Below are positions 4,403 to 60,398 of a stretch of DNA of 64,000 bases, in pieces (within the stretch, counting starts at the first letter, position 1; every line of letters starts with the position of its first letter). Where the stretch lies: positions 153,822,001 through 153,886,000 of the forward strand of contig OZ024740.1 of assembly GCA_964016885.1 (NCBI GenBank). The letters are read 5' to 3'. This DNA comes from Eledone cirrhosa (lineage: Eukaryota). The notes under the pieces are model-generated. The model was given only the letters and a program-made list of their open reading frames with translations, did no database searches and was not told where the DNA came from. The translations under genes and the position numbers were made by a program.

Positions 4403-4486
4403 TGTTAGAAGTGGGATTCGAACCCACGCCGGGAACACCCGACTGCGACCTGAACACAGCGCCTTAGACCACTCGGGCATCCTGAC
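4403..4486 (-). tRNA. tRNA-Leu(CAG), diverged copy, probable pseudogene
   Basis: 84 nt; 5 substitutions relative to the 11916 copy, including acceptor, D and anticodon stems. Confidence 0.75.
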
Positions 4487-4526
4487 TTATTAGTGGCCAG
4501 AAGAACGTTTAAAATATAATTAGAAG

Positions 4527-4830
<304 letters not shown>

Positions 4831-4852
4831 ATATATATATATATATATATAT

Positions 4853-5718
4853 AAAGAAGAAGTTTATGGAACGGAAATGCGGGTATAAAGAATTTATTAG
4901 GTAACAATTGTTTCTATAGTGTATGGGTTACCTATACCTTCCTTCTTGTATAATATAAAAATATTATCATAAATCGTAGGTACACTGTAAGAAAACACAC
5001 CATGTCGTCAGACCTTTGTAGTAGAAGGATATGAAAATATTTTATACACTAGATATAAGAGAAAGAAGGAGGTAGGAAGGGAAGAGGAAGAGGGAAGCGA
5101 GTAAGGGGGAGGGAGTCTTAGGATTTAAGACTGTCAGAGTAGTAGAGATTGTAAGGAGAAAATGTTTTGGCAGCAGTTAGCTTAATGAGGCGTGTTAGGG
5201 TTGGCGGGGGAAGTAAATTCTTCTAGTGGTGTTGTTTGGACAAAATTTAGTTAAAAGTGTCAAAGAAGTACAGAATTACAGACAAGTTATTGGGGCTATT
5301 ATAGTAGCAGGTTATTTCTAAAGGGGTCCAAAAAATAGTGTTTAGTACTATTATTATAGAAAGCCATATCGTGTGTATAAGCATATAAAACAGAAATTTG
5401 CAAACGGTGGTGTAAAAAGGTAACATTACATGCATTTAAAAAAAGAAAAAGTCGTTTTCAAACGATGGTTACAGTAAAGTGAAGGTTCAATTTTGCTGTT
5501 CAAAATTTTGTTTTCCGACGTTAAAATGCAGTATATCTCCATATTGCATAATTTACAGAATCACTGATTTTGCTAATATGCAGGCGCAGCTTCCATAATT
5601 TGCCAATCAAGTGAGAATGCTTGATTGTTCCTCCGAAGCTGCCAGGCTTTATCGGCGAGGGTTGTTACGGAGCGCATTTTCTCATGCCTGATCGAAGATC
5701 GATGTTGGTATAGGCGAG

Positions 5719-5720
<2 letters not shown>
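4853..5720 (-). mobile_element. 5'-truncated Penelope-like element (C-terminus of GIY-YIG endonuclease, 3' region and HHR) inserted in (TA)n
   Basis: Minus strand encodes RLYQHRSSIRHEK...TTLADKAWQL...LDWQIMEAAPAY, then CKLCNMEIYCIL...LNSKIE...CNHR, resembling the C-terminal part of PLE endonucleases. TA tracts on both sides. Confidence 0.75.
4899..5015 (-). ncRNA. Type I hammerhead ribozyme motif with enlarged stem II
   Basis: AGGU-CUGACGA-cAUGGUGUGU..(long insert)..AUACACUAUa-GAAA-CAAUUG-UU-ACCU, followed by AAUAAA. Palindromic stem III. Confidence 0.7.
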
Positions 5721-5753
<33 letters not shown>

Positions 5754-6067
5754 CTCTCTCTATCTCTGTATATATTTCTACATCTCATTTTCTCACTCTC
5801 TCTTTTTTTTCTTTTTTTTTTAAACTCTCTTTATCTTTACGTATCTTTGTATATCGAAAGTTAACTTTGTGCAATAGGTCATTTCTAAGACAATGGAATG
5901 TAATTCAAGATAAATTTAGGTGTTGCATCTACCTCACCTAGTAACGTTAAGGGATAGTACATTGGCTGAAAACGATAATACAATATCTTTAACAACTGAA
6001 TGCATTCACAACTGCTTCTAACTGATTTAGGTTTACAATCTAAAACTGCTTGACTACTAAATTATAA

Positions 6068-6235
6068 ATAATTGTTTTACTTTAGGCACAAGGCCAGCAA
6101 TTACCCAGTGCATTACTGGTACTTTATTTTATCGACCCCGTAAGGATGAAAGGCGAGATTGGAACTCAGATCGTAAAGGGACGTGACTATGCTGGAAAGC
6201 ATGGCGTCCGACCCTCTACCGATACTGCCAATCCA
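6068..6235 (-). mobile_element. tRNA-derived SINE with Nin/Deu-like core
   Basis: Core GCCTTTCATCCTTACGGGGTCGATAAAATAAAGTACCAG recurs at about 8942-9021, 24888-25051, 27720-27960, 30973-31303 (x2), 48718-48880 and 54520-54650. Confidence 0.75.
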
Positions 6236-6304
6236 AATGAATCTGTAAGATAAGGGTAGTTTAAACGATAACTTTGTATTCGTATTGAAATATCAAAAGT
6301 GCAA

Positions 6305-6388
6305 TGTCAGAAGTGGGATTCGAACCCACGTCGGGAAGACCCGACTGCGACCTGAACGCAGCGCCTTAGACCGCTCGGCCATCCTGAC
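6305..6388 (-). tRNA. tRNA-Leu(CAG)
   Basis: 84 nt; 1 substitution, in the variable arm; A and B boxes intact. Confidence 0.9.
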
Positions 6389-7504
6389 TTACAGATTATA
6401 AAAATGACTTTTTAACTATAATTAGACGAGGCATATTAAATTGTTACTTGCTTTATCAGTGATGGTGATGACTCTCACTTTCTCTCTCACACACTCTCTC
6501 TCACTTTCTCTTTCACACACTCTCTCTCACTTTCTCTCTCACACACTCTCTCTCACTTTCTCTTTCACACACTCTCTCTCACACACTCTCTCTCACTTTC
6601 TCTTTCACACACTCTCTCTCACTTTCTCTCTCACACACTCTTTCTCACTTTCTCTCTCACACACTCTCTCTCGTTCTATTATTCTCACTATTTTCCTCAC
6701 GATCCAACGAGGCAACCACTGTGAAAGAGTTTTCTCCACTTGTTTGAAAGAAATAACAAGCAAATATCCTTTCGTCCTATTTTTTCACAAGGAGGACTTT
6801 AAAGTATGCCGGAACTCTAGCTATTCTTTGAGACGGATTAGAATCATTGGATTATTAAGTATGAGTTTTCATGGTGATATTAATGATAGTTTTGCTTCTT
6901 AAATAAACCACTGAAAACAATTGGATAATAATAATGCATTCGTATATAATTTAGTAAAAAATCATACTGGCAGTAACTGAGGCTTACTTTTCCGACGGTG
7001 TTGAGTCCCGTCAAGATGGGAATGTTGTACTCTCATTCGCCTAAAGCATGTTAATACAGGATAAGCTACGGTTTGATGAAACTCTAAGTTTGAAACAACC
7101 TTAAACATTTAAAAAATATCTGGTATATCATTAAAAAACGTATATTGTTATCTTTTTGTGTCCAGTAACGTTCGGTCCCGGTCTAGGATATTTATGATAC
7201 AATATCTTCCAGCTATGACTTTCACGTATCTTGTATATCGAAGTTAACTTTATACAATGTGTCATTTCTAAGATGGTGGTATGTAATTCAACACACATTT
7301 ATCTGTTGCGTCTACCTAGTCAACAGTATCTAAAAAATTAAACTTTATTTTTAACATGTAAATGCGTTGATAACTGGTTCTAACTGATTTGGGTTTAAAA
7401 TCTAAAACAGTAGGACAAATCAATTGTAAATAATAAATCTGTTACAAAAGTATGGTTTGAACCAACAAACAGTCTGTATTAATATTGAAATAACAAAACT
7501 GCAA

Positions 7505-7588
7505 TGTCAGAAGTGGAATTCGAACCCACGCCGGGAAGACCCGACTGCGACCTGAACGCAGCACCTTAGACTGCTCGGCCATCCTGAC
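7505..7588 (-). tRNA. tRNA-Leu(CAG), 3 substitutions, possibly non-functional
   Basis: Changes in the T-stem, D-loop and D/anticodon junction. Confidence 0.78.
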
Positions 7589-8240
7589 TGCCTAACTTCC
7601 AGAAAAAAAAGAATTAGAAGGACATTATATAGTTAACTATTTATCGTTGGTGGTGCTTTCTCTCTCTGTTTATCTCTCTGTCTCTCTCTCTCTCTCCTTC
7701 TATCTCACCATCTCTCTCTCTCTCTCTCTTTCATACACACTCGCACTTTTTGACTTTTTTGTCATTCTCAACCTAAACATCCAGAAACGTTATTTAATAT
7801 AGGCTTGATGAAACTCGAGGTTTCGAACAGAGTTATACATTTTAAATATATCTGTGATATAATTAAACACGTTAAATTATTCTATATCTATAGTCTAGTC
7901 CGGTCCTGGTGTAGGATAATTACAATAAGATCTTCCACGTATCTTTGTATATCGAAGTCAACTTTGTGCAATCTATCTTTCTAAGACAGTGGGATGTAAT
8001 TCTAGACATATTTCGGTGTTGTATCTACCCTCACCTAGTCAACAAGGGGGGATAGCACATTGTCTCAAAACTTTTAACATTATTTTTAACAAATGATTGC
8101 GTTCATTGCTGGTTCTAACTGATTTTGGACAGTAATCTAAAACATTAGGATTACAAATTGTAAATGATAAGTCTGTAACAGAAGGGTGGTTTAAAGTAAC
8201 AAACAGTTGCTTTCATATTGAAATAAAAAGAAAATTGTAA

Positions 8241-8324
8241 TGTCAGAAGTGGGATTCGAACCCACGCCGGGAAGACCCGACTGCGACCTGAACGCAGCGC
8301 CTTAGACCGCTCGGCCATCCTGAC
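8241..8324 (-). tRNA. tRNA-Leu(CAG)
   Basis: Identical to the 11916-11999 copy; T-runs lie downstream on the coding strand. Confidence 0.95.
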
Positions 8325-9174
8325 TTACCTGTTACTAGAAAAACGTTTTAAAAATAATTAGACGAGGCATATTTTATTAAGTATTTATCATTGGTGGTTT
8401 TTTCTCTCTCCCTCTCTATCACTCTCTCATTCTTTCTCTCTCTATATATATTTCTCACTCTCTCCCTCTCTTACTCTCTCCCACTCTCTTTTTCTGTCTC
8501 TCTCTCTCACACACACACACACACATTCCCCCCTCTCTCTCACCTTTTTACTTTATTTATCATTCTCAACGTGAACATCCAGTTAATATAGAATAAGCTA
8601 AGGCTTGATGAAACCCGAGGTTTCAGACAGACTTATCCTTTTAAAATATATCTGTGATATGAAAATAAAACATGAAAAACATGAAAAAAACATATATTCT
8701 CGTTCTTTATGTATAGTCTAGTACGGCACCGGTCGAGCCGGTCTAGGAGAATTACGATACAAGATCTTCCAGCTATGAACTTCACGTGTCTTTGTATATC
8801 GAAGTCAACTTTGGGCAATGTATCATATCTAAAACGCTTGAATGTAATTCAAGACAAATTTAGCTGTTGTACCTGCCCCACCTTGCAAACGAGACGGGGA
8901 TAGCACATTGTCTCAAAAAAATAAACATTATTTTTAACAAATCCTTACGGGGTCGATAAAATAAAGTACCAGTAATTTACTGGGTAATTGCTGGCCTTGT
9001 GCCAAAAGTAGAAACAATTATTTTTAACAAATGATTGCGTTTAATTGGTTCTAACTGATTTTGGTTAGTAATCTAAAACAGTAGGAATACGGAATTGTAA
9101 ATAATAAATTCGTAACAGAAGGATAGTTTAAAGCAAGAAATAATTGTTTTCATGTTGAAATAACAAAAATGTAA

Positions 9175-9217
9175 TATCCGACCTGGACGCAAGGCCTTCG
9201 ACCGCCCGCCATCCTGG
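9175..9217 (-). pseudogene. tRNA-Leu remnant (T and variable arms deleted)
   Basis: CGACCTGGACGCAAGGCCTTCGACCGCCCGCCATCCTG at the homologous array position. Confidence 0.7.
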
Positions 9218-9407
9218 TGTCTTTGTTACAAACGTAACATTTAACAATGATTAGGCGAGACATATTAAATTGTTACTTCATTAATCATTGGTGGTTCTCT
9301 CTCTCACTTTCACTTTCTTTATTACTCTCCCTCACTTTCTCACTCATTTTCTCTCTCCCTCGTTCTCCCCCTTCTCTCCTCCCCTCTCTCTCTCTCTCTC
9401 TCTCTCA

Positions 9408-9449
<42 letters not shown>

Positions 9450-9986
9450 GTCTCTCTCTCAGATTCACATTCTCCCTCCTTTCTCGCTATTATTCTCACT
9501 GTGTTCCCCCCGACCCCTCGAGACACTCACTATGCAAGAGATCTCTTCACGTGCAAGAAAGAAATAAGAAACAGATCTCTTTCAACTTTCGTCCTATTTT
9601 CTTCACAGTGAAAAATATAAACGATAGAGTAATTCTACATAATATATTCTTTGAGATAGGAAAAAATCACCTGGATTGTTAAGTATGAGTTTTCATAGTG
9701 ATATTTACAATAGTTTCGTTTCTTAATTAAACCATTGGAAATAAATAGATAATAAATAAATAATGACACCATCATATATAATGTCGTAAAAATAGATACT
9801 GACAGAAACTGTGGATCTATCTTCTGGTGGATTTATGTCCCATCATGATGGAAACGCTGTCCTCATATTCGTTAAGGAATATTGGATAAGCTACGACCTG
9901 ATAAATTTGTAAATAGTGATTCTGTCACTGAAGATCGATTCAATACAACAAGCAACTGATTTCAGATATAAATGTGATAAAACTAT

Positions 9987-10053
9987 TGACAAAACTGGGA
10001 TTCGAACCAACTGGGATTCGAACACCTGACTGCGACCTGAACGCAGCGCCTGA
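9987..10053 (-). pseudogene. tRNA-Leu remnant with duplicated B-box and deleted D arm
   Basis: CTGGGATTCGAAC twice, then GACTGCGACCTGAACGCAGCGCC. Confidence 0.7.
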
Positions 10054-10741
10054 TTTACCAGTTTCAAGAAAAACATTTTAAATTGTTAACTATTTATATT
10101 TGGCAGTGCTTTCTCTCTCTCTCTCTCTCTCTCTCTCCTATTCTCTCTCTTTCTATTTCTATCTTTGTATTTCTCTCTCTTTCTCTCTCCCTCTAACACA
10201 CGCACTCTCTTTGTTTGACTCTCTTTATCATTCTCATCTTGAATATCCAGAAAGTTTAGTTAATATAGGATAAGCTACGGCTTGATGAAACTCGAGGTTT
10301 CGGAGAGACTTACACTTTTTAAATATATCTGTGATATCATGAAACACGTATATTGTTGGTCTTTATGTATAGTGTAGTACGGTCTCGGTGTAGGATAATT
10401 ACGATACACGATCTTTCAGCTGTGACCTTCACGGATCTTTGTATATCGATGTCAACTTTATGGAATGGAACATATCTACAACGGTGGAATGTAATTCAAG
10501 ACAGATTTCGGTGTTGCTTCTACCGCATCCAGAAAACGAGAGGATAGGGGGGAGATTGTCTCAAAAAAAATTTAAACTTTATTTTTAACAAATGAATCTG
10601 TTCATAACTGGTTTTAACTGATTTGGGTTTGCAATCTGAAACAGTATGACTACTAAATTGTAAATAATAAATGTATATAACAGAAGGATGGCTTAAACCC
10701 CAAAAAACAGTTGTTTTCATATTGAAATAACAAAATTGTAA

Positions 10742-10825
10742 TGTCAGAAGTTGGATTCGAACCCACGCCGGGAAGACCCGACTGCGACCTGAACGCGGCG
10801 CCTTAGACCGCTCGGCCATCCTGAC
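10742..10825 (-). tRNA. tRNA-Leu(CAG), 2 substitutions
   Basis: 84 nt; changes in the T-stem and anticodon stem. Confidence 0.82.
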
Positions 10826-10913
10826 GCGATGGCTTCCCGATTTACTATTTCATAATAATTTGACGAGATATAAATCGTTACTTGATTACTAGTAATGGTC
10901 TCTCTCTCCCCCC

Positions 10914-10960
<47 letters not shown>

Positions 10961-11189
10961 TCTCTCTCTATCCTTTTCATTTCGCACCCACCATTCAAGT
11001 CCGTCGACTTGTTCGAAAGAAATAAGTATATCTACATCAATTTTCATCCAATGTTTACTTTTTATTCATTCATAAACGAAAGTCTAAGTAGTGACAAAGT
11101 AAAGTACCCGCTCTGCGAAAGTTTGTCAATAAGTATTTCAATTGTTCGAACTATATACTCATTAATTTAACTCATACGTAACTGGCCAC

Positions 11190-11420
11190 TGACAACGAAG
11201 TTCTTGCATATTCGCGGCTGTGTTAGGTAATGTTCGTGAGAGTGCTTGGTTGTTCCAGCGCCTTAGCCTCGCTATTACCCGCGGTAACACTGCCTGTATA
11301 TTGGCTTGCCTCATAAAGTATTAGAGGAAGGATCCGGCACCTCTTGTGGTGTGTGACTACATTTATGTTGTATTTTCTTTCATTTTGATTCCATATTTTC
11401 ATGTGAAATATTTATGTAAT
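11190..11420 (+). mobile_element. 3' fragment of a CRE-like (RLE endonuclease) non-LTR retrotransposon
   Basis: 11235-11324 translates RESAWLFQRLSLAITRGNTACILACLIKY*, matching the QRLSxAxxRGN C-terminal signature. Confidence 0.7.
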
Positions 11421-11915
11421 TAACTAAAGTTAAAATATATAAGTTGTTTCTCATTTAAGTAACTTAGCATACCATAGACACCTGTAGCCTTACATTAATC
11501 CTTATGACTATATCAAAGTAGCACAATGTGTGGTACATCTTGTCACTTGAATTACAGGTAGATCTCATTTGATGATCGTGAACAGAATTATTTCCTCCCC
11601 TATTTCTCTTATAATTCGTAGTTCGAACCAAAGGTATAATAAAAGAAATTTTCTCCAATTGCCACACAGTGGGATTGAACGTGAGGCCTCCTGAATTGTG
11701 TAACGAAACCATTCCTCGAGCAACAAGAGCTACATATGCGCAGGCTGAAAGGAATGTGTGAATGTGTGTCTGTGAGAGACAAGTATGGAAAAAAGATAGA
11801 AAGTAAAAGCAAAGAAAGAAAGAAAGTAAGAAAGAAAGAAGATAAAAAGGAAGAAATTTCTTATAAATCAGACATCAACTCATCAAGCTTTGTCTTTTTA
11901 GCGATAAGATCGAGT

Positions 11916-11999
11916 GTCAGGATGGCCGAGCGGTCTAAGGCGCTGCGTTCAGGTCGCAGTCGGGTCTTCCCGGCGTGGGTTCGAATCCCACTTCTGACA
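11916..11999 (+). tRNA. tRNA-Leu(CAG)
   Basis: GTCAGGATGGCCGAGCGGTCTAAGGCGCTGCGTTCAGGTCGCAGT...GGTTCGAATCCCACTTCTGACA, followed by TTTCTTTTT Pol III terminator. Confidence 0.96.
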
Positions 12000-13966: not shown

Positions 13967-14493
13967 AATCATGGTCGGGTCGTCGGCGACTAAACGGGCA
14001 ACCGCACCAAGTCTACTTGGTGAGGAGGGTGATTTTGGACACCCTGCAGGACAAAAAACAAAACCTGACACAGGGCGGAAGAACTCATAAGAGTCAACGG
14101 CCATCCAAAAGTGTGTAAATATGTATATACACATGTACCGCGCGGTTAAACCACTGGGTGTGAAGGACCCCTAGCCTTTGTCAGGGCATTCTTCTAGGAG
14201 AAGGCATCTCAGGAAACTGGGTTAACTCCGACATAAAACCTGCGGCTCAGTAGTTACCGATAATGTTGATCTTTTCTTCTTTTCGGGTTATAGCTACTGT
14301 CGCTCAGAGAGTGGGATTGGCTCAGTGCACAGTCTTTCCTCACTTTAAAAAATATCTTCACGCACAGGCATTGCACGATAGAATTAATTAATAATTATTA
14401 ATAATGGTAAATCGTCCAATGGCCATACTCGATAACGAGGGGGCAGCCATCATGTATGTATGTATGTATGTATGTATGTATGTATGTATGTAT
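13967..14493 (+). mobile_element. RTE-derived non-autonomous retroposon, family A, (TATG)n tail
   Basis: Shares 5' body with family B; ends GGCCATACTCGATAACGAGGGGGCAGCCATC-(ATGT)n. Confidence 0.7.
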
Positions 14494-15180
14494 GTCAGGT
14501 CACCAGTTGGTGCTACTGGTAACATGTATCCCAGTACAACCTGTCTCATGGTCGGGTCGTTGGCGACTAAACTGGCAACCCCACCAAGGTTTCTTGGTGA
14601 GGAGGGTGACTTTGGACATCCTGCAGGACTAAAAACAAAACCTGTCAAAGGGCAAAGGAGCTCTTAAGAGTCAATGGCCATCCAAAATCACCGGGAGAGA
14701 TGACCCTTTAGTCTTTGTCAAGGCAGAATTCTAGGAGAAGGAAAACTCTGATATAACACCTGCAACCCTGATGGTATCCAATGATGTTGACTTGTTCTTC
14801 TTTTTGGTAAATAGCATCTTGGTTAAGAGAGTGGGACTGGCTTTGTGCAGTGCCTTTGCTCACTATAAAAGCTTCACGGCACAGGCATTGCTTTATATCT
14901 GGAGATCTCTCTGCACTTGTCCTCACATGGGCCCAGCACTATGTGTCAATAGTTGTCCTACCATGGGCCTAGCACTATGTGTCAATAATTGTCACAGGTG
15001 TAGTGTTTGTACCAGAGGTTTCAAGTCGCTGGCTGGACTAAAAAGTCACACTCGTTCAGCGCTTCGGTAGGGGTTATCCTACATGGATGTAAAGTAGTGG
15101 CCGTACTCGAAAACGAGTTGGCAGCCACCATGTATGTATGTATGTATGTATGTATGTATGTATGTATGTATGTATGTATA
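14494..15180 (+). mobile_element. RTE-derived bipartite non-autonomous retroposon, family B, (TATG)n tail
   Basis: Retains the RTE-type C-terminal zinc-finger remnant [20 protein letters not shown] and 3' stem CTCGAAAACGAG...CAGCCACC-(ATGT)n. Further copies at 17577-18186 and 19201-19611. Confidence 0.75.
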
Positions 15181-15231
15181 CACACATACATACATACATA
15201 CATGATGGCTGCCCCCTCGTTATCGAGTAGA

Positions 15232-15562
15232 TAAATGCCTTAGTGATTAGAGCACTGGGATTGTAATCAGAGAGAAGGTTGTGAGTTCGATTCTCGGATC
15301 GGTTGATGCGTTGTATGCTTGAGCAAGACACTTTATTTCACGTTGCTCCAGTTTACACATATGTAGAAATGAGTTCCGACATCACTGCCAAGCTATATAG
15401 GCCGTTCTAGTTCCCTTGGACAACACCGGTGGCGTGGAGAGGGGAGGCTGGTATGCATCAGTGACTGGTGGTTTTCCACAAACAACTTTGCCCGGACTTG
15501 TTCCTCGGAGGGAAACTTTCGAGGTGCGAATCCCATGGTCATTCGTGATCGAAGGGGGTCTT
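15232..15562 (+). mobile_element. tRNA-headed SINE
   Basis: A-box-like TAGTGATTAGAGC, B-box GAGTTCGATTC, then CTTGAGCAAGACACTTTATTTCAC core. Confidence 0.65.
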
Positions 15563-15753
15563 TACTCTTACATATAAACTATTCTAGTCCTGTAGAAGCC
15601 ATTTCTATATTAAATATTTATACTCTGAACACGGGATAAACTTATATATATATTTATATATATATGTAAGAGCATAGAGTGCTCAACCGGTATACCGCCT
15701 ATGGAAGCATCTTAGCTACCATAAGACACACACACACACATATATATACAATG

Positions 15754-15795
<42 letters not shown>

Positions 15796-15796
15796 C

Positions 15797-15868
<72 letters not shown>

Positions 15869-15869
15869 G

Positions 15870-17434
<1,565 letters not shown>

Positions 17435-17444
17435 ATATATACAT

Positions 17445-17502
<58 letters not shown>

Positions 17503-17576
17503 CGGGAAAGAGAGAGGTGGGTAGATAATTAGCTAGATATATAGATACGTACGCACATACATACATACATACATAC

Positions 17577-18431
17577 ATGGTGGCTGCCAACTCGTTTTCG
17601 AGTACGGCCACTACTTTATATCCATGTAGGAGAACCCCTACTGATGCGCTGAACGAGTGTGACTTTTTAGTCCAGCCAGCGACTTGAAAGCTCTGGTACA
17701 AACACTACACTTGTGACAATTATTGACACATAGTGCTGGGCCCATGGTACCATGTGACGACAAATGCAGAGAGATCTCCAGATATAAAGCAATGCCTGTG
17801 CCGTGAAGCTTTTATAGTGAGCAAAGGCACTGCACAAAGCCAGTCCCACTCTCTTAACCAAGATGATATTTACCAAAAAGAAGAACAAGTCAACATCATT
17901 GGATACCATCAGGGTTGCAGGTGTTATATCAGAGTTTTCCTTCTCCTAGAATTCTGCCTTGACAAAGGCTAAGGGGTCATCTCTCCCGGTGATTTTGGAT
18001 GGCCATTGACTCTTAAGAGCTCCTTTGCCCTTTGACAGGTTTTGTTTTTAGTCCTGCAGGATGTCCAAAGTCACCCTCCTCACCAAGAAACCTTGGTGGA
18101 GTTGCCAGTTTAGTCGCCAATGACACGACCATGAGACAGGTTGTACTGGGATACATGTTACTAGTAGCACCAACTGGTGACCTGACATATATACATATAT
18201 ATATATACATACATACATATATACATACATACATATATGATGGCTGCCCCATCATTATCGAGTAAGGCCCGATATACCATTATTAATAATTATTAATTAA
18301 TTCTATCGTGCAATGCCTGTGCGTGAAGATATTTTTGAAAGACTGTGCACTGAGCCAATCCCACTCTCTGAGCAACAGTAGCTATAACCCGAAAAGAAGA
18401 AAAGATCAACATGATCGGTAACTACTGAGCT
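17577..18431 (-). mobile_element. Inverted copy of the family A (5'-truncated) plus family B dimer
   Basis: Reverse complement of about 14243-15135, including the internal microsatellite spacer. Confidence 0.85.
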
Positions 18432-18911
18432 ACATATATGCCAATAAATGCATTTATGCGAACAGACACACAACATGATATCTAGTATATGCTGTGGAGA
18501 AAGAGAGCTTTTATACATATTTCAAAAGATGCGAACTACAGAGGTCTGCTGCAGTTAGATATATGTCTAAATATAGAATTCTAACTGCACTGTTCCTAAT
18601 ATTCTGGCTAATACTCTGTAGAAGAGAAAAGCTGACGTTATACCTATTTAAAAGTTCGGTTTGTTGGCACTCATGCTACACGTCACACAAACAATACTTA
18701 ATGTTAATTTACAGCTGCCATCCCTCCAAATCATGAAAGTGATTCGCCATAGCTGTCAAGTTAACTTCTTTTCTCAAATATGAAGTCCGGTTTCTATCCC
18801 AAAGCGTGGCACTATCAATAGATATCTGCTAGTATTATCGCAGATTGACGAAATTGAAAGTAACATTTTATAGACGAAAGTCGGTCGATTATATATATAC
18901 ATAGATACACA

Positions 18912-19105
<194 letters not shown>

Positions 19106-19117
19106 TATGTGTGTATG

Positions 19118-19193
<76 letters not shown>

Positions 19194-19200
19194 TATACAT

Positions 19201-19611
19201 ATGGTGGCTGCCAACTCGTTTTCGAGTACGGCCACTACTTTATATCCATGTAGGAGAACCCCTACTGATGCGCTGAACGAGTGTGACTTTTTAGTCCAGC
19301 CAGCGACTTGAAAGCTCTGGTACAAACACTACACTTGTGACAATTATTGACACATAGTGCTGGGCCCATGGTACCATGTGACGACAAATGCAGAGAGATC
19401 TCCAGATATAAAGCAATGCCTGTGCCGTGAAGCTTTTATAGTGAGCAAAGGCACTGCACAAAGCCAGTCCCACTCTCTTAACCAAGATGATATTTACCAA
19501 AAAGAAGAACAAGTCAACATCATTGGATACCATCAGGGTTGCAGGTGTTATATCAGAGTTTTCCTTCTCCTAGAATTCTGCCTTGACAAAGGCTAAGGGG
19601 TCATCTCTCCC
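19201..19611 (-). mobile_element. 5'-truncated family B copy
   Basis: Appears identical to 17578-17988; the ORF track gives the same translations for both. Confidence 0.85.
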
Positions 19612-19639
19612 AGATATATATATATATATACATACATAT

Positions 19640-19744
<105 letters not shown>

Positions 19745-19777
19745 CATATACATATATATATATATATATATAAATAT

Positions 19778-20668
19778 ATGAATAAAGTGGTCCTTCATCA
19801 GTGATCTTCCAACCATCACAGGTATTTCTTCGCTTTAAAGACCATATACCTCCGGTTGGTGCGAGCAACGGCTAAAAAAAAGTCGTTGGGACACGTAAAT
19901 AAAGGGGACAGCGAGAGTGTAAACAAACAAAGATGGTGAAGCAACGAAAAGTGAGGAAATACGAGTCAAGTCCCAAAATTCCATGAATATAAGTTCGGTG
20001 AAATCGTGAACGAGAGAGAATAAAGACCATCAAACCTGGTTGGAATGTGAGCAAGGAAGGAATTCCGTACATGTCTAACGGGGGGAAGAAGGAATCTAGT
20101 CTGTGAATTCGGTGAACATAAGTTCTGTGAAATCGTAGACGAGAGAGAGAAAAAAGGCGAACCAGCCTGACCAAGCGTGCGAAGAAAAGAATTACGCACA
20201 GGTCAAACGGGAAGAAGGAGGAGGAGAGGTAGTAACAGAGAGTGAGTGAGTGAAGGGTGAGGAAGAGGCTAACAGAGAGAGTGACTGTTAGAGAGGGTAA
20301 AGATACAGAGAAAGAGGAAGCAGTAAGAACGAAATAGACGGATCACAGCGGGGAAAACAATATGTGTAAATATGAGAATAAACGTGCTGCGTGGTTGCAA
20401 ATGGGTTACATATGAATAAAGTGGTCCTTCATCAGTGATCTTCCAACCATCACAGTTATTTCTTCGCTTTAAAGACCATATTTGTTTTTTTACACTCTCG
20501 CTGTCCCCTTTATTTACGTGTCCCAACGACTTTTTTTTAGCTGTTGCTTGCACCAACCGGAGGTAAATGGTCTTTAAAGCGAAGAAATACCTGTGATGGT
20601 TGGAAGATCACTGATGATGGACCACTTTATTCATATGTAACCCAAATGCAACCACACAGCACGTTTAT

Positions 20669-20675
<7 letters not shown>
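19778..20675 (-). mobile_element. Non-coding 634-bp-unit element: about 1.1 units plus an inverted segment (20481-20675), in (TA)n
   Basis: ATGAATAAAGTGGTCCTTCATCAG...AAAGACCATAT at 19778 and 20412. The inverted piece reads across the unit junction. Second copy at 50828-51545. Confidence 0.8.
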
Positions 20676-20731
<56 letters not shown>

Positions 20732-20891
20732 TAAATATACACGGGTGTGTATGATTGTGTATAGAAGATTATATTAATAAGAGGAATTCCAACTTTGTCT
20801 GATTTACTCGTTTTATTTACAATCCTTTAAAATATATATAATGGTATTATAATGAAATAGTATGATAGAATATTAAATTCTAAGTGTTAAT

Positions 20892-20930
20892 TGAACAAGT
20901 ACTTTCATGCTTTCGCAATCTTCAGGTTCA
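20892..20930 (-). ncRNA. Minimal hammerhead in 3' pLTR
   Basis: UGAAC-CUGAAGA-uUGC-GAAA-GCAu-GAAA-GUAC-UU-GUUCA; palindromic stem III. Confidence 0.82.
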
Positions 20931-21301
20931 TGATATGTGGTGACAGTCGAGTTTGCAATTTTCAACTGTAATGAGATGGGTAAATTTCCTACCTTTTATA
21001 CATTTTATACAGAGAAAAGTGGCTCCAGAATGCAAAGCCCTGTAAACTGTATTTCGACCAATCAATGTGTAGTTTCACTGAATTACTACAGCTGATTGGT
21101 TTAAGCGTCACGGCTGGTTGAGCATGCTAACGGCCAATAGTCATATCCAACGTATCAATTGTTTTGCTTTTTGAAATGATGAAAATAGCATTTTCTATTA
21201 ATCATCACCATCAACATCACTTTTATTATTATTATTATTGTTGTTGTTGTTGTTAGTGGTCGTGGTCATAGTGGTAGTAGAAGTAATACCCCTAGGCGTT
21301 A

Positions 21302-23041
21302 TTATTGTTCATTTAGCTTGGGTTTGAATTTATCAATAAAATTCTTTTCTTTGATTTTTCTCTTGATTTCACTTGGGCTGTGTAATTTGTAGAATGGGAA
21401 TATTATAAATATTCCCTGACCACATGTTGCCAGGTGGCCGCTTAGGGGTATCTGACGGACATTTGGGTCTCTGATTTGTTGACGGTGTACCCGTGCACGT
21501 TCCGATAGTGCATTTCCAGTTTGACCGACATATAGTTCTTCACAATTCGGGCATTTAATGCAGTAAATTAGATTTCTGCTTTTGCAGTTAATATTTGCAT
21601 TTGGGAATATTTTTCCAGTTTTTGTTTTCATATATTGACCGGCGTGTATGGATTGACATGTGCCGCATCGATTATCATTGCATTTAGATACAGTGAATGA
21701 TTGGTCTTTGTTGTTAAGGTCAAACTTTGCTTTTGTTAGCAATTGCTTCAAATTTTTTGGCTGTCTTTTACTAAGAGTCAAAGATCGATCTGTGATTAAG
21801 CCTTTTAATTCGTTACTTTGAGCAATGATCGGTAGGTTTGCTTTGGCAGTGTTGAAGATATTCTGGTGACATGGGTTGTGTGTCATTATAAATGGTATGA
21901 CCAGTTCTTGGTTTCTTCTTCCTTGGGTTGTTCTAAGTTGTTGTATAGGTATTTTTATAGCCCGCTGTATGCCATTTTCTATAAGTAGAGATGGGTATTT
22001 TTGTTTGAGCAAAAATTCTCTTAGTTCTGTCAGGCGTTTGTACCTGGTATTCGTATCTTCTACAATGGTACAAATTCTTCTGGCTAGGCAGTATGGGATG
22101 TTGCGTTTTGTATGAGGTGGATGGCACGACTTAAAATTCAGATATTGATGGGTGTCTGTGTGTTTATAATATATATCCGTGGTAATGGTGGTGTCGTTTT
22201 TGATTATCATTATATCTAGGAATGGTAATTTGGTCCTACTCATCTCTTTTGTGAATTGGAGAGATGGGTGTAGGTTATTCAGGAGGATATTGAACTCATC
22301 CAGAGTATCTAGAGATTCTGTCCAGATGATGAAACAGTCGTCAAGGTATCTCTTCCAAGATTTTTCAATGTACTTTCTAAAGTCAGTACTATACTTTTCC
22401 TCTATTTCTTGGTAGAGTTGTTGTTCTAAGTATCCCATTACAGAGTTCGCGTAAACGGGAGCAAACTTCGTTCCCATCGCTGTGCCTCTAATTTGGATGT
22501 AATTATTTCCATTGAAGAAGAAAGTGTTGTTTTCCAGAATAAGTTTAACTGCGTCTAATATAAATGGCGCTGTGAATCTAATGGGAATCACTTCTCTATG
22601 TTTTTCCACCCAGTATTTAACCGCCTTTATTCCTAAATCATGTGTAATGCTGGTTTAAAGGCTTACCACATCAAAACTGAGTAGAAGTGAATTCGTTTCC
22701 GTGGTTTTGGGAAGATGGGACAGGAAGTCGATATCATCCCGGATGAAACTGGGTATGTGAATACATAGTGGTTTCAAAATAATGTCAACAAAATTGCTTA
22801 GACGGTGAGTGGGGCATGTTGGACCAGCTATAATAGGTCTAAGTTTTAAGTCTTTTGGGTGTAATAATTTAATGTACTCACTGCTTTGTTCTCTTACTGC
22901 CAGTTGTATTTCTTTTGACTTGTGAACTTTCGGTAGGCCATACAGGTTGCTGGGTTTCGGCTCAAAATTGGTGATGTAGTCTCTTTCCTTATCAGTAAAT
23001 GAGTTGTGGTATTTTGAAGCCAGGTTGTTGATCTTCTTCAT
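21302..23041 (-). pseudogene. PLE reverse transcriptase plus GIY-YIG endonuclease; one in-frame stop at 22655-22657
   Basis: GLPKVHK, LRPII, SFDVVSL, GTAMG, RYLDD, Cys linker CNDNRCGTC and NLIYCIKCPNCEELYVGQTG. The two ORF-track pieces are in the same frame. Confidence 0.93.
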
Positions 23042-23274
23042 GATGTTGTGGTCGAGCTAAATGAACAATAATAACGCCTAGGGGTATTACTTCTACTACC
23101 ACTATGACCACGACCACTAACAACAACAACAACAATAATAATAATAATAATAAAAGTGATGTTGATGGTGATGATTAATAGAAAATGCTATTTTCATCAT
23201 TTCAAAAAGCAAAACAATTGATACGTTGGATATGACTATTGGCCGTTAGCATGCTCAACCAGCCGTGACGCTTA

Positions 23275-23382
23275 AACCAATCAGCTGTAGTAATTCAGTG
23301 AAACTACACACTGATTGGTCGAAATACAGTTTACAGGGCTTTGCATTCTGGAGCCACTTTTCTCTGTATAAAATGTATAAAA
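23275..23382 (+). promoter_or_regulatory. Putative pLTR Pol II promoter
   Basis: CCAATCA/GATTGG boxes, GAGCCACTTTT (23351) and TATAAAA (23367, 23376), about 70 nt before the HHR. Confidence 0.5.
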
Positions 23383-23445
23383 GGTAGGAAATTTACCCAT
23401 CTCATTACAGTTGAAAATTGCAAACTCGACTGTCACCACATATCA

Positions 23446-23484
23446 TGAACCTGAAGATTGCGAAAGCATGAAAGTACTTGTTCA
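23446..23484 (+). ncRNA. Minimal hammerhead in inverted pLTR
   Basis: Same motif as 20892-20930. Confidence 0.82.
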
Positions 23485-23598
23485 ATTAACACTTAGAATT
23501 TAATATTCTATCATACTATTTCATTATAATACCATTATATATATTTTAAAGGATTGTAAATAAAACGAGTAAATCAGACAAAGTTGGAATTCCTCTTA

Positions 23599-23684
<86 letters not shown>

Positions 23685-23701
23685 CATACATACATACATA
23701 C

Positions 23702-38650: not shown

Positions 38651-40123
38651 ATATTCGAAGGTTTTACATAAATAGTCAAGTTACATAGCTGGCAAAATGA
38701 GTATTATGTGTGATTTACTACTACAATTAATAATACTGATAAAAAGAATGAGCTATTTTGTTTGTTTGTATTCCTCCACAACAATCTACCACAAACTTCG
38801 GCAACATGTTTCTGAATGGCGCCAAATAAATAAATGTAGGCTTGAATCTTGAGACTGACTAGAAATAGTTGTGTACTACGGTCCAGCAATCTTTATTATT
38901 GTGATGATAGTATCACTGATAGCAACTGCACGAGAGTGTATCTTAGATTGTATTGTCTAATATCTCTGATCCCTTTCTTTCGAGATGATTAGATGTTTGA
39001 TTTAAAGGAGAAGAGATTAATAATTCTAACCGGTCGAGTAATCATGTAGATATTCTCTGATTGCCATATGTAGCAGTTATAATTCTCTTTAGTTTTTGTT
39101 GTTTTTTAGCCACAGCTCAGCACTGATGGATCAGATGTGAGCAAGAGGGCTCCAAATTTAACAGCCTGGCATTCATTTTCAGGCAAACTAAAACTTCATC
39201 GACCTATGTCATTTCTCCAAGACTTTAGGGCGTAGTCTACGAGAGCTTTTGACTGTTGTGATGCAATTTATCTGTTTTGTTTGTTTTAGATAGAGGCTCT
39301 AGAGATGATAGTGATGGGCGCGATTGTGGTTGTAGTAGTGATGGTAGTGTCGGTTCTGATAGTGATGTCGGGGAAGATGCCGGTTGTAATGGTGAAGAAG
39401 ATGCTGGCACCGGTAGTGATGGACGAAGTGATAGTGGCGCTGGTGAATATGGTTGTAATATGTGAGGGAGGTCGGAGCTAGCAATAGAAAGTCTAGCCAG
39501 TGTGAATAAGTAATTGCAATAGCATAGCATACTTGGCATGAAATAAATATATATTTACCAGACTGACGTGGCAGAAATTGTTCAGATAATAAATAGTTTA
39601 TAACTTGAAATAATAGCATTGGGTTTATATGGAAAGATAGGAGGCTTTCTTCACTGATGATTCTTTGATATATAGATTCGTCTATAAAACACACGCGCGC
39701 AGTCACACACACGCACACATACACAAACATGTATGTATGTATGTATGTATGTATGTATGTATGTATGTATGTATGTATGTATGTATGTATGTATGTATGT
39801 ATGTATGTATGCGTTTATGTGTGTGCATGTGTGTCTGTGTGCGTGTGTGTGTGTATGTATGTGTGAAACATTTATTTATGTCCAACCAATCAACCAACAG
39901 AAAAAAATTGAAATACGATTTCGCACCAAATACGAATCTAATATTCCAAGACTAATTTAAAGCGAGTAACGTTTAGTTGCTAAGGTATATAAATAGTATG
40001 GACTTATGAATAAGATTTGGAATTGAAATCACAAAGAAAAAACCAGAAGTCCTCAACGATAAATTTTGTAAAGAATATATGAAGATATATATTAGTACAA
40101 CGCTTGATATAGTAAGAACAGTG

Positions 40124-40159
40124 TCTTAACGTTTCGGGTACATGTACTTCATCAGAAGA
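40124..40159 (-). ncRNA. Orphan minimal hammerhead motif (stem II slightly decayed)
   Basis: UCUU-CUGAUGA-AGUACAUGUACCC-GAAA-CG-UU-AAGA. Confidence 0.6.
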
Positions 40160-41499
40160 TAGAATGAGAAATTAAAGATGAACTAGTTGCCAGAGGCTGA
40201 GCAGAGCAAGGGACGGAAAAAATATTTTAGAGAAAAATCAGGTGTGTGTTCAATCAGTAATATATATATATAACGTTGACTTTGAGGGAGAGGGGTATTT
40301 GAACTTAGAGCAGAAAAAACTGAAACAGATTTCGCATCGCATTCTGCCCGACGCTTTAACTACTCTGTTAATCAAATATCTTATCAGATACATCCCTCCG
40401 CCAGAATAAAAGACAAGGGTTACTTCAGCGGTACATAAACTGAAAGCGGATAGAGCGGAAACGAATACCGCAAAGTATTCTATTTAACATTCTAACGAAT
40501 CTACCAATTCGACGTCCTGTATACTAAAAACTATATGTTTGTACGGACATGTAACTTCTACCGGACACCGTAGTGATATATAGCGTTTCAAGGGCATTTT
40601 AAAACTTGTGGCGCCCATTTCTCACGAGTTCTGAACAGAGACGGTTTCTTCCCGAGAAAGAGAGACTGAGTAAGTGAGATATGGTGGAAGAATAGGCTCC
40701 TGTACCGGACTGATATTATTTATCGATGAACAAAGTATGATGGACAAAGTTGAGTTCGTTGAGTTTTGAATACAAGAAGCGCAGAGAGCCTCAACGAATT
40801 TTACCCGACGTTCTAACGACGTTACCAATCTGATGCCTATATACTAAAAGCTATGTACTAATAGTAAATAATCTGATAATTTATAGAATACCAGCAATGA
40901 TGGGGAAAGTTTTGATTTATTTCTCCGTGTGTATTGTTGTTGTTTCTGTATTGAAGGATGTGGCATGTACTAAGACATTGGTATTGATTCCATGGATAGG
41001 AGTGTGTAAGTTGTTTTCATTGTATGGTCTTTTTTTTTTTCTCTATTTTTTTTTTGCATCTCACACAATTTATTAGATTTTTAAAAGTAATAAGGACATT
41101 TGCAAGCAGCGTCATATATTTTTTAACACAAACAAACATACATTTACACACACAAATATATAAGCGCATAAAAACACACGCACACGAACAACAAATACAC
41201 ATACAAACAGGACACACGCATTTCACATTCATACACATGATTGAGCACACACACACACATACATACATACATCCATAAACACACACATACAGACATTCAT
41301 ATGCAGAAAGAAAAAGAAGACTGCATGAGAAGCATATATATTGATTCCACCAAGGAATATCTTTTTCTCGTGTTTCCTCAGCTAGTAGACTGTTTAACAA
41401 GATCGTATTTTTAGCTGAATGAAGTTGGTTCCTGTTCTTCTTTTTATCATTTATATTTTTATTTTGTTTGCATTTTATTTCCAGTCATGTCTCTTTCCC

Positions 41500-50787: not shown

Positions 50788-50827
<40 letters not shown>

Positions 50828-50832
<5 letters not shown>

Positions 50833-51545
50833 TAAAGTTAGTCCTTCATCAGTGATCTTCCAACCATCATTGGTATTTCATCGCTTTAAAGACCATATAC
50901 CTCCGGTTGGTGCGAGCCACGGCTAAAAAAAGGTCATTGGGACACGTAAATAAAGGGTACACGAGTGTAAACAAACAAAGATGGTGAAGCAACGAAAAGT
51001 GAGGAAGAAGGAGACAAGTCCCAAATTTCTATGAATATAAATTCGGTGAAATCGTGAACGAGAGAGAATAAAGACCATAAAACCTGGTTGGAATGTGAGC
51101 AAGGAAGGAATTCCGTACAGGTCTAACGGGAGGAAGAAGGGATCTAGTCTGTGATTTCGGTGAACGTAAGTTCTGTGAAATCGTAGACGAGAGAGAGAAA
51201 AAAAGCGACCTGCCAGACCAAGGGTGCGAAAGAAAAGAATTACGCACAGGTCAAACGGGAAGAAGGAGAAGGAGGAGGAGAGGTAGTAACAGAGAATGAG
51301 TGAGTGAAGGGTGAGGAAGAGGCTAACAGAGAGAGTGACTGCTAGAGAGGGTAAAGATACAGAGAAAGAGGAAGCAGTAAGAACGAAATAGATGGGTCAC
51401 AGCGGGGAAAAAATATGTGTAAATATGAGAATAAACGTGCTGCGTGGTTGCTAATGGGTTACATATGAATAAAGTTAGTCCTTCATCAGTGATCTTCCAA
51501 CCATCATTGACATTTCATCGCTTTAAAGACCATATACCTCCGGTT
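50828..51545 (-). mobile_element. Second copy of the about 635-bp non-coding element (637-bp period)
   Basis: Terminal direct repeat at 50828 and 51465; same start point next to (TA)n as the 19778 copy. Confidence 0.85.
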
Positions 51546-51556: not shown

Positions 51557-52948
51557 GTGTCTTTCGATGTAGTGAATCTCTACACAACGATCCCACACCA
51601 ATACGGACTAGAAGCAATAGGATTCTGGCTACAGAAATATCCCAATGAGATACCTGACAGAATAGAAAAAAGCTTCATCACCGAGGGATTAAAATTTATT
51701 TTACAGAACAACTCTTTTGATTTCGATGGCAGTACTTGCAAGCAAATATCGGGGACTGCGATGGGTACAATAGCCGCTCCAACTTATGCCAACTTAGTCA
51801 TGGCATACTTGGAAGTCCAGATATATGAACAGTCCAAATCAAAATACGGATTGAACTTTCACAAAGTTTTATCAGAAAATTGGAAACGCTACTTGGATGA
51901 TTGTCTCATTCTTTGGTCCCACACACTCGACCAACTAAATGATTTCAAAAATTTAATTAACGGCATCAATAACCCCATCCAATTCACAATAGAACACAGC
52001 CAAGATCAACTCTCATTTCTGGACATCTTAATCTTAAAAAAAGACACAAATATTGAAACTGACATACACTACAAACCAACAGTATTCCAAACAATACCTG
52101 CTATTCACCTCCAAGCATACAAAGCACACGAAGACAAACATTCCTTTTAACCTAGCAAGAAAAATTGGCACAATTGTCTCCAATTATGAAACACGAAATA
52201 AAAAAACTTTAAGAATTAAATTAAATTCTACTCGAAAGACAGTACCCACCATTACTAATAAATAATGGAATAGAAAGGGCTAAAGCAATAGGCATTGATG
52301 AATTACGAAAACAGAAACAAATTCAAGGTACGTCCAATATTTTATCATATATATCAACAGACAACCCAAGAAATGCGGAAACCTACAACACTATTCACAA
52401 GAACATCCCACTATTGAAACAAGACCCAAGAATGAAAAAAGCCCTTGAAACACACAAAGTAATCAAAAGAAAAAGACAACCGAAATCACTAAAAACATGA
52501 CTCACCAATGCCAGATTACCTACTACAAACCCACACGCAACTGTCAGAAAATGTGGTCGCTCTAATTGTGGAACCTGCACTCACCTCATTGAAGGCAACA
52601 CGTATACATTTCAATCAGGACAAAATTTTGCTATAAAAAATCACTTCACTTGCTCATCAAAAAAATCTATTTTATGCCATTAAATGTAAAGGATGCAATG
52701 AAGATTATATAGGACAAACTAAACTCACACTAAGAAACAGAATGACAGGACATCGCCAACAATAACGAGATCCAACCACGAGACAGATACCACTAAGTGC
52801 ACATTTAGACATATGCGCAAGTAATAAGACACCCAAATTCCAAGTCTTCCCATTTTAACTTTGCGCTGACAATACAACAGAACAAATACGAATAAATAAG
52901 GAAAATATGTTTATTCAAAAATATAGACCAACATTAAATATAGTTTAA
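51557..52948 (+). pseudogene. PLE RT plus GIY-YIG, frameshifted
   Basis: SFDVVNLYT, GTAMG, WKRYLDDC, CGRSNCGTC, IYAIKCKGCNEDYIGQT. Confidence 0.9.
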
Positions 52949-53554
52949 TATACATTATGTCAACACCATAACATGCTAACCATCCAAACAGATACATACA
53001 CACACACACATAACACCTTCTACTTTAGAAAATAAAAAACCAGAACTACATAAACCTTAACATACGTTAATACTCTAACACCTTAACATGCTACCCTCTC
53101 CCACACACACATAACTCCCTCCCCCATTTCTACTAACGGAATCATTTTCCTACACACACACACACACACACAAAATATATATATATATATTCTCTCCATC
53201 TTAACATTCTGACCATACTCCCCCCCCCACACACACATAACACCCATACACACACACACGCATAACACCCATATACACACACACATACACACAACTCCAT
53301 CCCCCATTTCTACTAATCATCTTCCTACACACACACACACACACACACAAGCACACAAATAAACATACATATCTCTACTTTCTTTATTTCAATAGAAAGT
53401 CTGAATTCTGACACCCCAGCGAACCAGCCATATTCACTGAACCAGAACAATTCTCCCTATCCCATTTCTATTGACCATTATCTTTTGTTTGCCACACAAT
53501 TCTCTAAAAGGCTACAAAACAAATCCCAAATACAGACTCGAAAATTAATGAACT

Positions 53555-53866
53555 TGTTCACGTGACAGTCATAATTTCATTTATAACCAATCAAATTACT
53601 TTTTTAAAAAAGAGCCTTCGTGAGCCACTTTTTTTAAGTAAAAAGAAATTCAAACACAAACTGGCGGGAAAGCTGATGTGCTTATTCACGTGACTGCATC
53701 AACCAACCAAACTTCACTCATATATGAAAAAACAACCTGACCCCCCCCCCTTGTTTGAAGAACTTTGTAACGCGAACTGGCGCGAAATGTATTATACTTA
53801 TTCACCAACCAATCAAATTACCTCTCTAAAAACCTGGCATTTCGAGCCACTTTTAACCCTATAAAA
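53555..53866 (+). promoter_or_regulatory. Putative pLTR promoter
   Basis: TCACGTGA x2, CCAATCA x2, GGCGGGAAA and GGCGCGAAA, GAGCCACTTTT x2, TATAAAA at 53860. Confidence 0.55.
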
Positions 53867-53928
53867 CAAGTAACATTCAAAGACCAACCAGATGTGAGAC
53901 AAATCACAGACCCTCCATCTCAACTCTA

Positions 53929-53964
53929 CTTTTGAAAAGCAGAAGAACTGCGAAACCGGTAAAG
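53929..53964 (+). ncRNA. Minimal hammerhead, U3-A8 core variant
   Basis: CUU-UUGAAAA-GCAG-AAGAA-CUGC-GAAA-CCGG-UA-AAG, then AAUAAA. Confidence 0.7.
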
Positions 53965-54241
53965 GAACCAAATAAATATATATATTTAAAAAAAAAAAAC
54001 TCCAGTTGCATTTTCGATTTCATCTTTTTCCTTATACTTTCACTCGTGAAGGACACCTCGGTTATTTTTCATTTTGTAAAAAAAACCTCACTTTCTAATA
54101 TATATATAAATATATATATATATATATTTATTAAAATAACAGATATTCGCTCTACGGTTCTTATATATTTGATATATATTTATCCTTATCGAGCCCTCTT
54201 TGGATTTTAGTCTTCAAATTTATTATTATTACTATATATAT

Positions 54242-54833: not shown

Positions 54834-54942
<109 letters not shown>

Positions 54943-55475
54943 GTGTAAGGAATTCTTTTACAATGGAATTAGCTCGAAAGGAAATATTCCTGAGCCGTGT
55001 ATAAAAGTAATATATATGAGTAATATATATGTTGAAACAGATACCAACATATCTGTATTTATATGTATAAACATCATTGCCATTTGGCAGCACAACTAGT
55101 TTTTGTCGATTTATTATTATTATTATTTTAAATCGATGTGGACGAACTGTGGTATAATAATTAATATTCTTCAGTCTGGCTAACTTTCTTTTGCAATATA
55201 AATACAGATATGTTGGTATCTGTTTCAACATATATATTACTCATATATATTACTTTTATACACGGCTCAGGAATATTTCCTTTCGAGCTAATTCCATTGT
55301 AAAAGAATTCCTTACACTTAATATAACGGCTCTTCGTCGAGCTAAAATTCGCCTCATATATACGACTGTTATTTCTAGCAGTACGGTTATGAGACTAGCC
55401 TGAATCTGTGAACCCATGTGCGTCACACAGTCTTTTAAATTATTTAGAAGTGAAGCTTATCAATTGTCTCTGGAT

Positions 55476-55540
55476 GTTTACTGAGGAGAGCAGTGGCATG
55501 ATATTCCTACACTTATATCCATCTCGAAACATGTTTGGAT
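55476..55540 (+). ncRNA. Type I hammerhead motif, unit 1
   Basis: GUUUA-CUGAGGA-GAG..CUC-GAAA-CAUG-UU-UGGAU; stem I is wobble-rich. Confidence 0.65.
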
Positions 55541-56000: not shown

Positions 56001-56065
56001 GTTTACTGAGGAGAGCAGTGGCATGATATTCCTACACTTATATCCATCTCGAAACATGTTTGGAT
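56001..56065 (+). ncRNA. Type I hammerhead motif, unit 2
   Basis: Identical to unit 1. Confidence 0.65.
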
Positions 56066-56244
56066 TTTGAGGTTTAAACTTATCTACTGAACAGGTTTGA
56101 CTTTGAAATTTAAATATGTATAAACATCATTGCCATTTGGCAGCACAACTAGTTTTTGTCGATTTATTATTATTATTATTTTAAATCGATGTGGACGAAC
56201 TGTGGTATAATAATTAATATTCTTCAGTCTGGCTAACTTTCTTT

Positions 56245-56292
<48 letters not shown>

Positions 56293-60333: not shown

Positions 60334-60398
<65 letters not shown>

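Follow-up and report, generated by a model that had tools for sequence, protein, structure and literature searches.

The 64,000-nt stretch of DNA analysed here (the window) contains two insertions of a repeat, a short non-coding mobile element that is present in thousands of copies in this animal genome (Table 1). The two copies are 92.8% alike and each consists of a full unit with an upstream partial one. An earlier note, made from the sequence alone, had already picked out both copies, a fixed end that they have in common beside a (TA)n tract, a unit of 635 nt and an internal duplication of about 120 bp; all of these were borne out, with the unit now measured at 634 nt. The 156-aa open frame on the minus strand is low-complexity.

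Other elements also occupy the window. At 20674-23692 on the minus strand is a separate full-length Penelope-like element (PLE) with RT and GIY-YIG, a CX4CXXC linker, one stop and inverted pLTR arms; it has its own type I minimal hammerhead (20925, minus; 23451, plus) and its own tail, and it lies in the same (TA)n tract as copy 1. A decayed PLE is found at 51560-54100 on the plus strand, relatives of which carry a U3-A8 core variant of the minimal hammerhead. Short repeats at 14245-19611, 40090-40170 and 54935-56307 contain type I minimal hammerheads (17100, plus; 40155, minus; 55481 and 56006, plus), with tandem and inverted arms in the first and last of these regions. Six clustered tRNA matches lie inside diverged repeats of ~0.7-1.1 kb at 4403-11999, whilst 2-2040 and 56609-64000 hold Helitron-like helicase fragments, recognised by eye from the translations, as well as a pair of LINE ORFs encoding endonuclease and RT domains, the second of them called by 73% DNA similarity.

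Table 1. Features of the repeat and of its predicted fold in the window
Feature	Position	Strand	Remarks
Copy 1	19776-20481	minus	with inverted arm reaching 20676
Copy 1, full 634-nt unit	19776..20409	minus	fixed 3' end (19776) adjoins (TA)n
Copy 1, upstream partial unit, 72 nt	20410..20481	minus	5'-truncated
Copy 1, inverted 5' arm	20475..20676	plus	
Optional ~40-nt PLE-type tail at end of inverted arm	20637..20676	plus	PMC8557442, PMC11167929; sequence also internal in copy 1, at 20370-20409
Internal duplication, ~119 nt	19977-20093 / 20106-20222	.	73% identical over 119 nt
(TA)n target tract at fixed end of copy 1	19614..19779	.	
Second (TA)n tract	20673-20729		
Core CUGAUGA (C3-A9), block C	19795..19801	minus	intact in 193/201 full copies
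Stem I, 3' strand GAAGAUCA	19802..19809	minus	
Stem III, 3' side	19809..19825	minus	inner AUACC, 3-nt K-turn bulge, tandem GA, outer GGUUGG
Core GAAA (G12-A15.1), block G	19825..19828	minus	intact in 178/201 full copies
AAA linker and stem II 3' strand GCGA	19830..19836	minus	
Stem I, 5' strand UGGUCUUU	19837..19844	minus	
Predicted cleavage triplet A-U16.1-A17	19845..19847	minus	cut predicted by analogy between 19845 and 19844
Stem III, 5' side	19846..19859	minus	outer CCAACC, K-turn GGA, inner GGUAU
Stem II, 5' strand UCGC	19861..19864	minus	from upstream of cleavage block
Hairpin 5' of stem II, CAACGA/CCGUUG	19866..19888	minus	3/6 pairs change on both sides
GUCC, proposed partner of GGAC (19790-19793)	19889..19892	minus	closes fold; weak in family A
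Copy 2, main lineage, full unit and ~86-nt partial	50826..51545	minus	fold intact at 50846-50915; cut predicted between 50896 and 50895

A first search of the genome for the element returned 4,003 candidates. PLEs are described as having partial tandems, an inverted 5' copy, a 30-40 bp tail and (TA)n targets (available part of Craig et al. 2021, PMC8557442), the tail arising from two RT start sites (PMC11167929). Each part of this anatomy was looked for in the element and found: a fixed 3' end, a variable 5' end, partial tandems, an inverted 5' copy, a tail of 30-40 nt and a microsatellite target. Among the 30 best-matching loci, selected for holding more than one unit, the fixed end lies in TA-rich sequence in every case, ten loci have an inverted arm, and the optional extension of ~40 nt occurs at either end of the element. 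It is from this anatomy (tandems, inverted 5' copies, tail and (TA)n) that the minus strand is taken to be the sense strand, and the repeat is almost certainly a non-autonomous PLE-type repeat. Unit length differs between lineages, from about 514 to 848 nt, and insertions are mostly under two units long. Many of the variants are present in two contig sequencing runs, a comparison that speaks to presence only.

The earlier note had gone further, describing the element as circularly permuted, with an overrun of 70-80 bp past one unit and an inverted segment whose passage through the unit junction implied a circular or multimeric template. The unit is not randomly permuted, however: in a motif-selected set of 105 copies, the unit end is the terminus of 42, another 42 stop after the tail, 20 run on into the next unit and one is of a different kind. 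The overrun is close to the claimed length in the two window copies (72 and about 86 nt) but is not a fixed one: in the 30 best-matching loci, overruns span 40 to 376 nt. As for the inverted arm, it does cross the junction, but it does so by the ~40-nt tail only, an ordinary feature of PLEs, and it is therefore no proof of a circle. A circular template for copying is suggested instead by the markers of lineage, which are discordant between units of one insertion in only 1/19, 2/19 and 1/26 cases as against 0.28-0.53 between loci, and by an insertion of more than two units (L113). Both observations fit repeated reading of a single unit, whether through a circle or through template jumping, and it is plausible that a re-read template was copied. 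In a few chimeric insertions (L019, L067 and L007) the units belong to different lineages, which points to a switch of template between RNAs.

The minus-strand motif quoted in the earlier note is present far beyond chance, a 16-mer from it having 7,466 exact matches in the 3.0-Gb genome versus a single match for the reversed control. Its parts fit an order, S-G-C, first recognised in the 3' ends of Naiad PLEs (hits from the supplement of PMC8557442), in which GAAA lies upstream of CUGAUGA and the helices are crossed. Read 5' to 3', the fold consists of the stem II strand UCGC, the outer and inner strands of stem III, U16.1-A17, the stem I strand UGGUCUUU, AAA, the stem II strand GCGA, GAAA, stem III, the stem I strand GAAGAUCA and CUGAUGA. 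Stem I has 7-8 bp and stem III is interrupted by a kink-turn (K-turn); both flank the core, and the A15.1-U16.1 pair is present. The conserved UH said to be missing is found upstream of GAAA, U16.1-H17 being kept in 198 of the 201 full copies, and the supposed 9-nt insertion is the linker together with the 3' strand of stem II. What sets the fold apart is the source of stem II. Pairing of the strand 3' of CUGAnGA with the strand before GAAA is intact in none of the 201 copies, an upstream strand pairing instead, and the strand after block C forms at most 1-3 bp of stem II in any family. The A9-10.1 link is broken, and the G10.1-C11.1 pair is absent in family A, where C.U or C.A stand opposite each other.

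The fold comes with additional scaffolding. A kink-turn consists of a helix, a 3-nt bulge, tandem G.A/A.G pairs and a second helix, and the GA/GA of stem III is present in 191/201 family A copies, with the bulge and the 3b/3n positions variable. The hammerhead parts and the K-turn-like motif that the earlier note had put forward are upheld, as is its view of the unit as a variant and not an LTR. Family C has the K-turn with one extra base and family B is without it. A closing helix, formed by the strand after A9 and the strand before the hairpin, amounts to 6-7 bp in families B and C and to 4 bp in family A, where shifted controls score at least as well. A further helix, UUAG/CUAA, could be discarded, as it is intact in 1/41 and 0/45 copies of two lineages.

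Families B and C were recovered as 1,111 candidates with a GUC site and 2,226 with an AUC site, respectively. Family C has the order and core of A, whilst family B, which has no significant BLAST match to A, keeps the order and core with different helices. Close to their 3' ends, the tails of all three families (window 20637-20676 for A; L084 and L197) have in common a G[CT]AAC[CT]AC[AG]CAGC motif, a putative signal for the start of RT.

Pairing was examined in 19 hand-picked copies, 12 of family A and seven of family C. In the S-G-C fold 95.2% of the cells are paired and both sides have changed in 13 of 22 pairs; with the hairpin and closing helix included, the figures are 94.2% and 16 of 30. 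None of 500 shuffles paired as highly, and slid controls gave 34-47%. Relatedness inflates the pair-change counts, because most of the both-side changes go back to a single A-versus-C split that is scored repeatedly. The young A2 lineage, whose copies are 99-100% identical and whose cores are intact in 45/45, nevertheless adds three both-side changes of its own, located in stems I and III. A descriptor of the fold matched 0/3,000 shuffles of the element and 0/5,000 shuffles in which both cores were held fixed; on reversed sequence it gave one weak match in 365 kb and four in 400 kb, and on 400 kb of arbitrarily placed genome stretches one weak match and no true one. No hammerhead or other family in Rfam matches the element, and a type I hammerhead descriptor finds nothing within the unit and six matches elsewhere in the window. 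Nested folding yields another structure (z = -0.76), as expected for pseudoknots, which the method cannot model. Overall, it is very probable that the element carries a conserved S-G-C hammerhead-like fold with a stem II supplied from upstream.

One position of the core behaves unusually in the lineage of copy 1 (L002-L025). Here 12/41 copies have T, C or G in place of A13, and GAAA is broken in 14/41 compared with 9/160 elsewhere (Fisher p 6e-6). Between units of one insertion A13 differs in 8/26 pairs, against a background of 0.036. Among the first 100 genome matches, seven of the 46 AAAGCGAAG copies (four of which are already in the main copy set) are changed at A13, mostly to T, versus none of the 54 others. 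Per-pass miscopying of one template base and selection for uncut templates are both possible explanations.

Which enzyme mobilises the element was approached through the Naiad RT, for which there are 80 matches in the genome; many have internal stops and short open frames, and they look decayed. None of 20 fetched matches has the fold downstream, and no 3' end common to an autonomous family was found among the fetched loci. Genome searches with an Octopus Naiad end motif (two mismatches) and with a first Naiad RT pattern returned nothing, and a looser RT pattern gave three decayed copies. Given the near-identity of the A2 copies and the decay of the Naiad RT, either a young Naiad has escaped detection or the copying is done by a different PLE clade. 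Several PLEs with type I motifs occupy the same (TA)n tracts as the element. Three candidate partners were rejected: pairs spaced 2.9 kb apart (L061 and L062) and a GIY-YIG ORF upstream of one copy (L069) are separate insertions, and the neighbouring PLE at 21305-23056 has a type I motif and tail of its own.

The DNA itself shows the element's ends and tail, its tandems and inversions, the (TA)n sites, the core nucleotides and the helices that covary; the steps from transcription to insertion we infer. Partial tandems would be transcribed by read-through, and the RNA would fold and be cut after A17 (window 19845), 69 nt before the unit end. Target-primed reverse transcription would then begin at (TA)n from either of two start sites 40 nt apart. 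Some cDNAs would end at or within the fold, on cut or stalled templates, whilst others would pass it on uncut or re-ligated RNA, giving rise to units with overruns and occasional multimers. In both window insertions the complete fold is confined to the terminal unit, and the upstream partials have no stem II 5' strand. The partial in copy 1 lacks the 5' half of the fold and carries a C-to-A change in stem III, and the motif in the inverted arm is predicted to be inactive because U16.1 is changed to A. Release of circles in cis would not be expected from either the upstream partials or the inverted copy.

The 5' ends of insertions bear on the proposed cut. They were placed by eye in 98 copies chosen by the motif 16-mer alone, with one duplicate and one internal deletion dropped. 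Within 47 nt above C3, where the predicted cut is at 43, there are 21 ends, and the next two 48-nt bins contain three and eight. No single-base peak is seen at the predicted cut, the ends being spread through the whole fold. Among the listed loci, junctions fall exactly at the cut in 6/30 of family C and 11/32 of family A, counts that are confounded by TA microhomology, and a T/TAAAG cluster 5-8 nt from the cut accounts for 12/30 and 10/32, respectively. Many upstream partials extend past the cut site. Cut templates and stalling of RT in the fold explain the pile-up equally well.

The fold might also be real and yet not cut, serving as a hammerhead-derived, kinked binding or positioning signal for a PLE RT that stalls cDNA synthesis. 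The scatter of 5' ends across the fold would suit such a signal, as would the split core and the tolerance of A13 changes in the copy-1 lineage, and in an Anolis PLE ribozyme mutants leave insertion unaffected and none of the reads stops at the cut site (PMC11167929). We nevertheless think it unlikely, as every catalytic position, U16.1 and a non-G H17 (A or C) among them, has been retained in three families with differing helices, and S-G-C forms are reported to cleave (available part of PMC10085705). On balance, the fold probably self-cleaves. Our main reading, to which we assign a probability of about 0.68, is thus of a high-copy PLE-type repeat, likely copied in trans by a Penelope-type RT, whose last ~105 nt form a predicted self-cleaving S-G-C hammerhead with an upstream-fed stem II and a kink-turn in stem III.

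A more ambitious version of this, somewhat less than an even bet, can be put forward tentatively. The element would possess an active hammerhead of a seventh wiring, S-G-C with its core severed after A9 and re-docked by way of the bridging strand and a multi-way junction, with a protein-binding bend at the kink-turn. This would be the hidden ribozyme of Naiads in different animal phyla, and abundant non-autonomous repeats would have a circular-RNA life cycle driven by it, A13 of one lineage being miscopied at each RT pass, as with a silencing modified base.

The earlier note had read the motif in type II order, as a variant or dead hammerhead with the helices UGAU/AUCA and GGUCUU/AGGACC, and this we regard as highly improbable. 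Both helices can form in the copy-1 lineage (40/41 and 32/41 copies), and the duplex energy of the type II stem II is so close to that of the S-G-C stem I (-6.1 vs -6.6 kcal/mol) that it may be a competing misfold there. Outside that lineage, however, the pairing is lost: stem I is intact in 0/45 young A2 and 6/35 old copies, and stem II in 0/45 and 0/35. The arrangement also lacks a UH, and its stem I with the A-U pair gives only 44.7% paired cells compared with the 95.2% of the S-G-C topology, which we adopt in its place. Less probable still is that the unit belongs to an LTR retrotransposon as its LTR, the reading that the earlier note had set against its own, or that it is a satellite, for although the two window copies have a direct terminal duplication of 70-86 nt, the element has one fixed and one variable end, inversions, optional tails and (TA)n sites, is dispersed over many contigs and has no internal domain between repeats.

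The predicted self-cleaving S-G-C hammerhead can be set beside several known systems. Our literature searches found no description of the fold, although subscription papers, a cited PLE-hammerhead paper and some supplements (including that of PMC10085705) could contain one. Like metazoan non-LTR retrozymes, the element is a non-coding, ribozyme-bearing and tandem-prone repeat thought to be mobilised by PLEs. Retrozymes are, in the available parts of the reports, defined by type I hammerheads, and circular RNAs have been shown for them (Cervera and de la Pena 2020, PMC7229834; Li et al. 2026, 10.64898/2026.07.22.740005), whereas the unit here, analysed as DNA, has no type I hammerhead. The type I hammerheads of pLTRs resemble the fold in core sequence and in their position near the pLTR 3' end. 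They have the type I order and a short, palindromic helix III, and they are dimer-dependent; the element's fold, with its long helix III, should in contrast work as a monomer. One type I hammerhead family of this genome (L061, L066, L206 and L208) has the CUGAUGA-AGGACUA and the GGAC/GUCC helix of family A, and it is possible that it was the source of the family A core end or that the likeness is due to chance.

Among the closest counterparts are Naiad PLEs, for which the available part of Craig et al. (2021, PMC8557442) reports no canonical hammerhead, gives no account of the present fold and marks half-cores as 'HHR_half_core'. In common with the element, Naiads have (TA)n targeting, a tail, an inverted 5' copy and, close to the 3' end, a CUGAUGA that is preceded by GAAA. 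Examined by eye, Octopus Naiad ends show the same helices, the same 23-nt spacing from GAAA to core and the same K-turn. Among the search hits from that supplement, which do not amount to a census, we could read the S-G-C layout by eye in four types of Naiad 3' end, found in two Octopus, three near-identical cnidarian and two further records; two other ends have the type I core order, Naiad_Omin is without the motif and several were left unparsed. Naiads encode GIY-YIG and RT whereas the element encodes nothing, and no alignable sequence was found between them and the element in this material. If the fold cleaves, it would explain why descriptor searches called Naiads hammerhead-less (as given in the available part of PMC8557442).

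The ribozymes of type SGC (HRIMA-1 and variants) provide the biochemical precedent, cleaving in vitro at 0.007-0.19 per min (available part of Eckert et al. 2023, PMC10085705). According to the same part of that paper, they have not been found in the genomes of known organisms, and the classification assumes an unbroken CUGAnGA block and allows six block orders. The element's fold has the non-circularly permuted S-G-C order, the full core, pseudoknotted stems I and III and the ~3-nt linker between stems I and II described there. It departs from type SGC in its stem II: in the published ribozymes CUGAnGA is followed by a strand that pairs with the one preceding GAAA, whilst here an upstream strand makes stem II, and it adds the hairpin, the closing helix and the K-turn. 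Since the helix after CUGAnGA is not intact in any of the 201 copies, the fold would work like an SGC hammerhead and yet is not a member of the class as defined in the available text. If it cleaves, it would be a non-circularly permuted ribozyme in an animal genome with a wiring beyond the six block orders given there. For probing the role of PLE ribozymes the element offers a construct of 110 nt with a predicted cut base, along with compensated variants that occur naturally.
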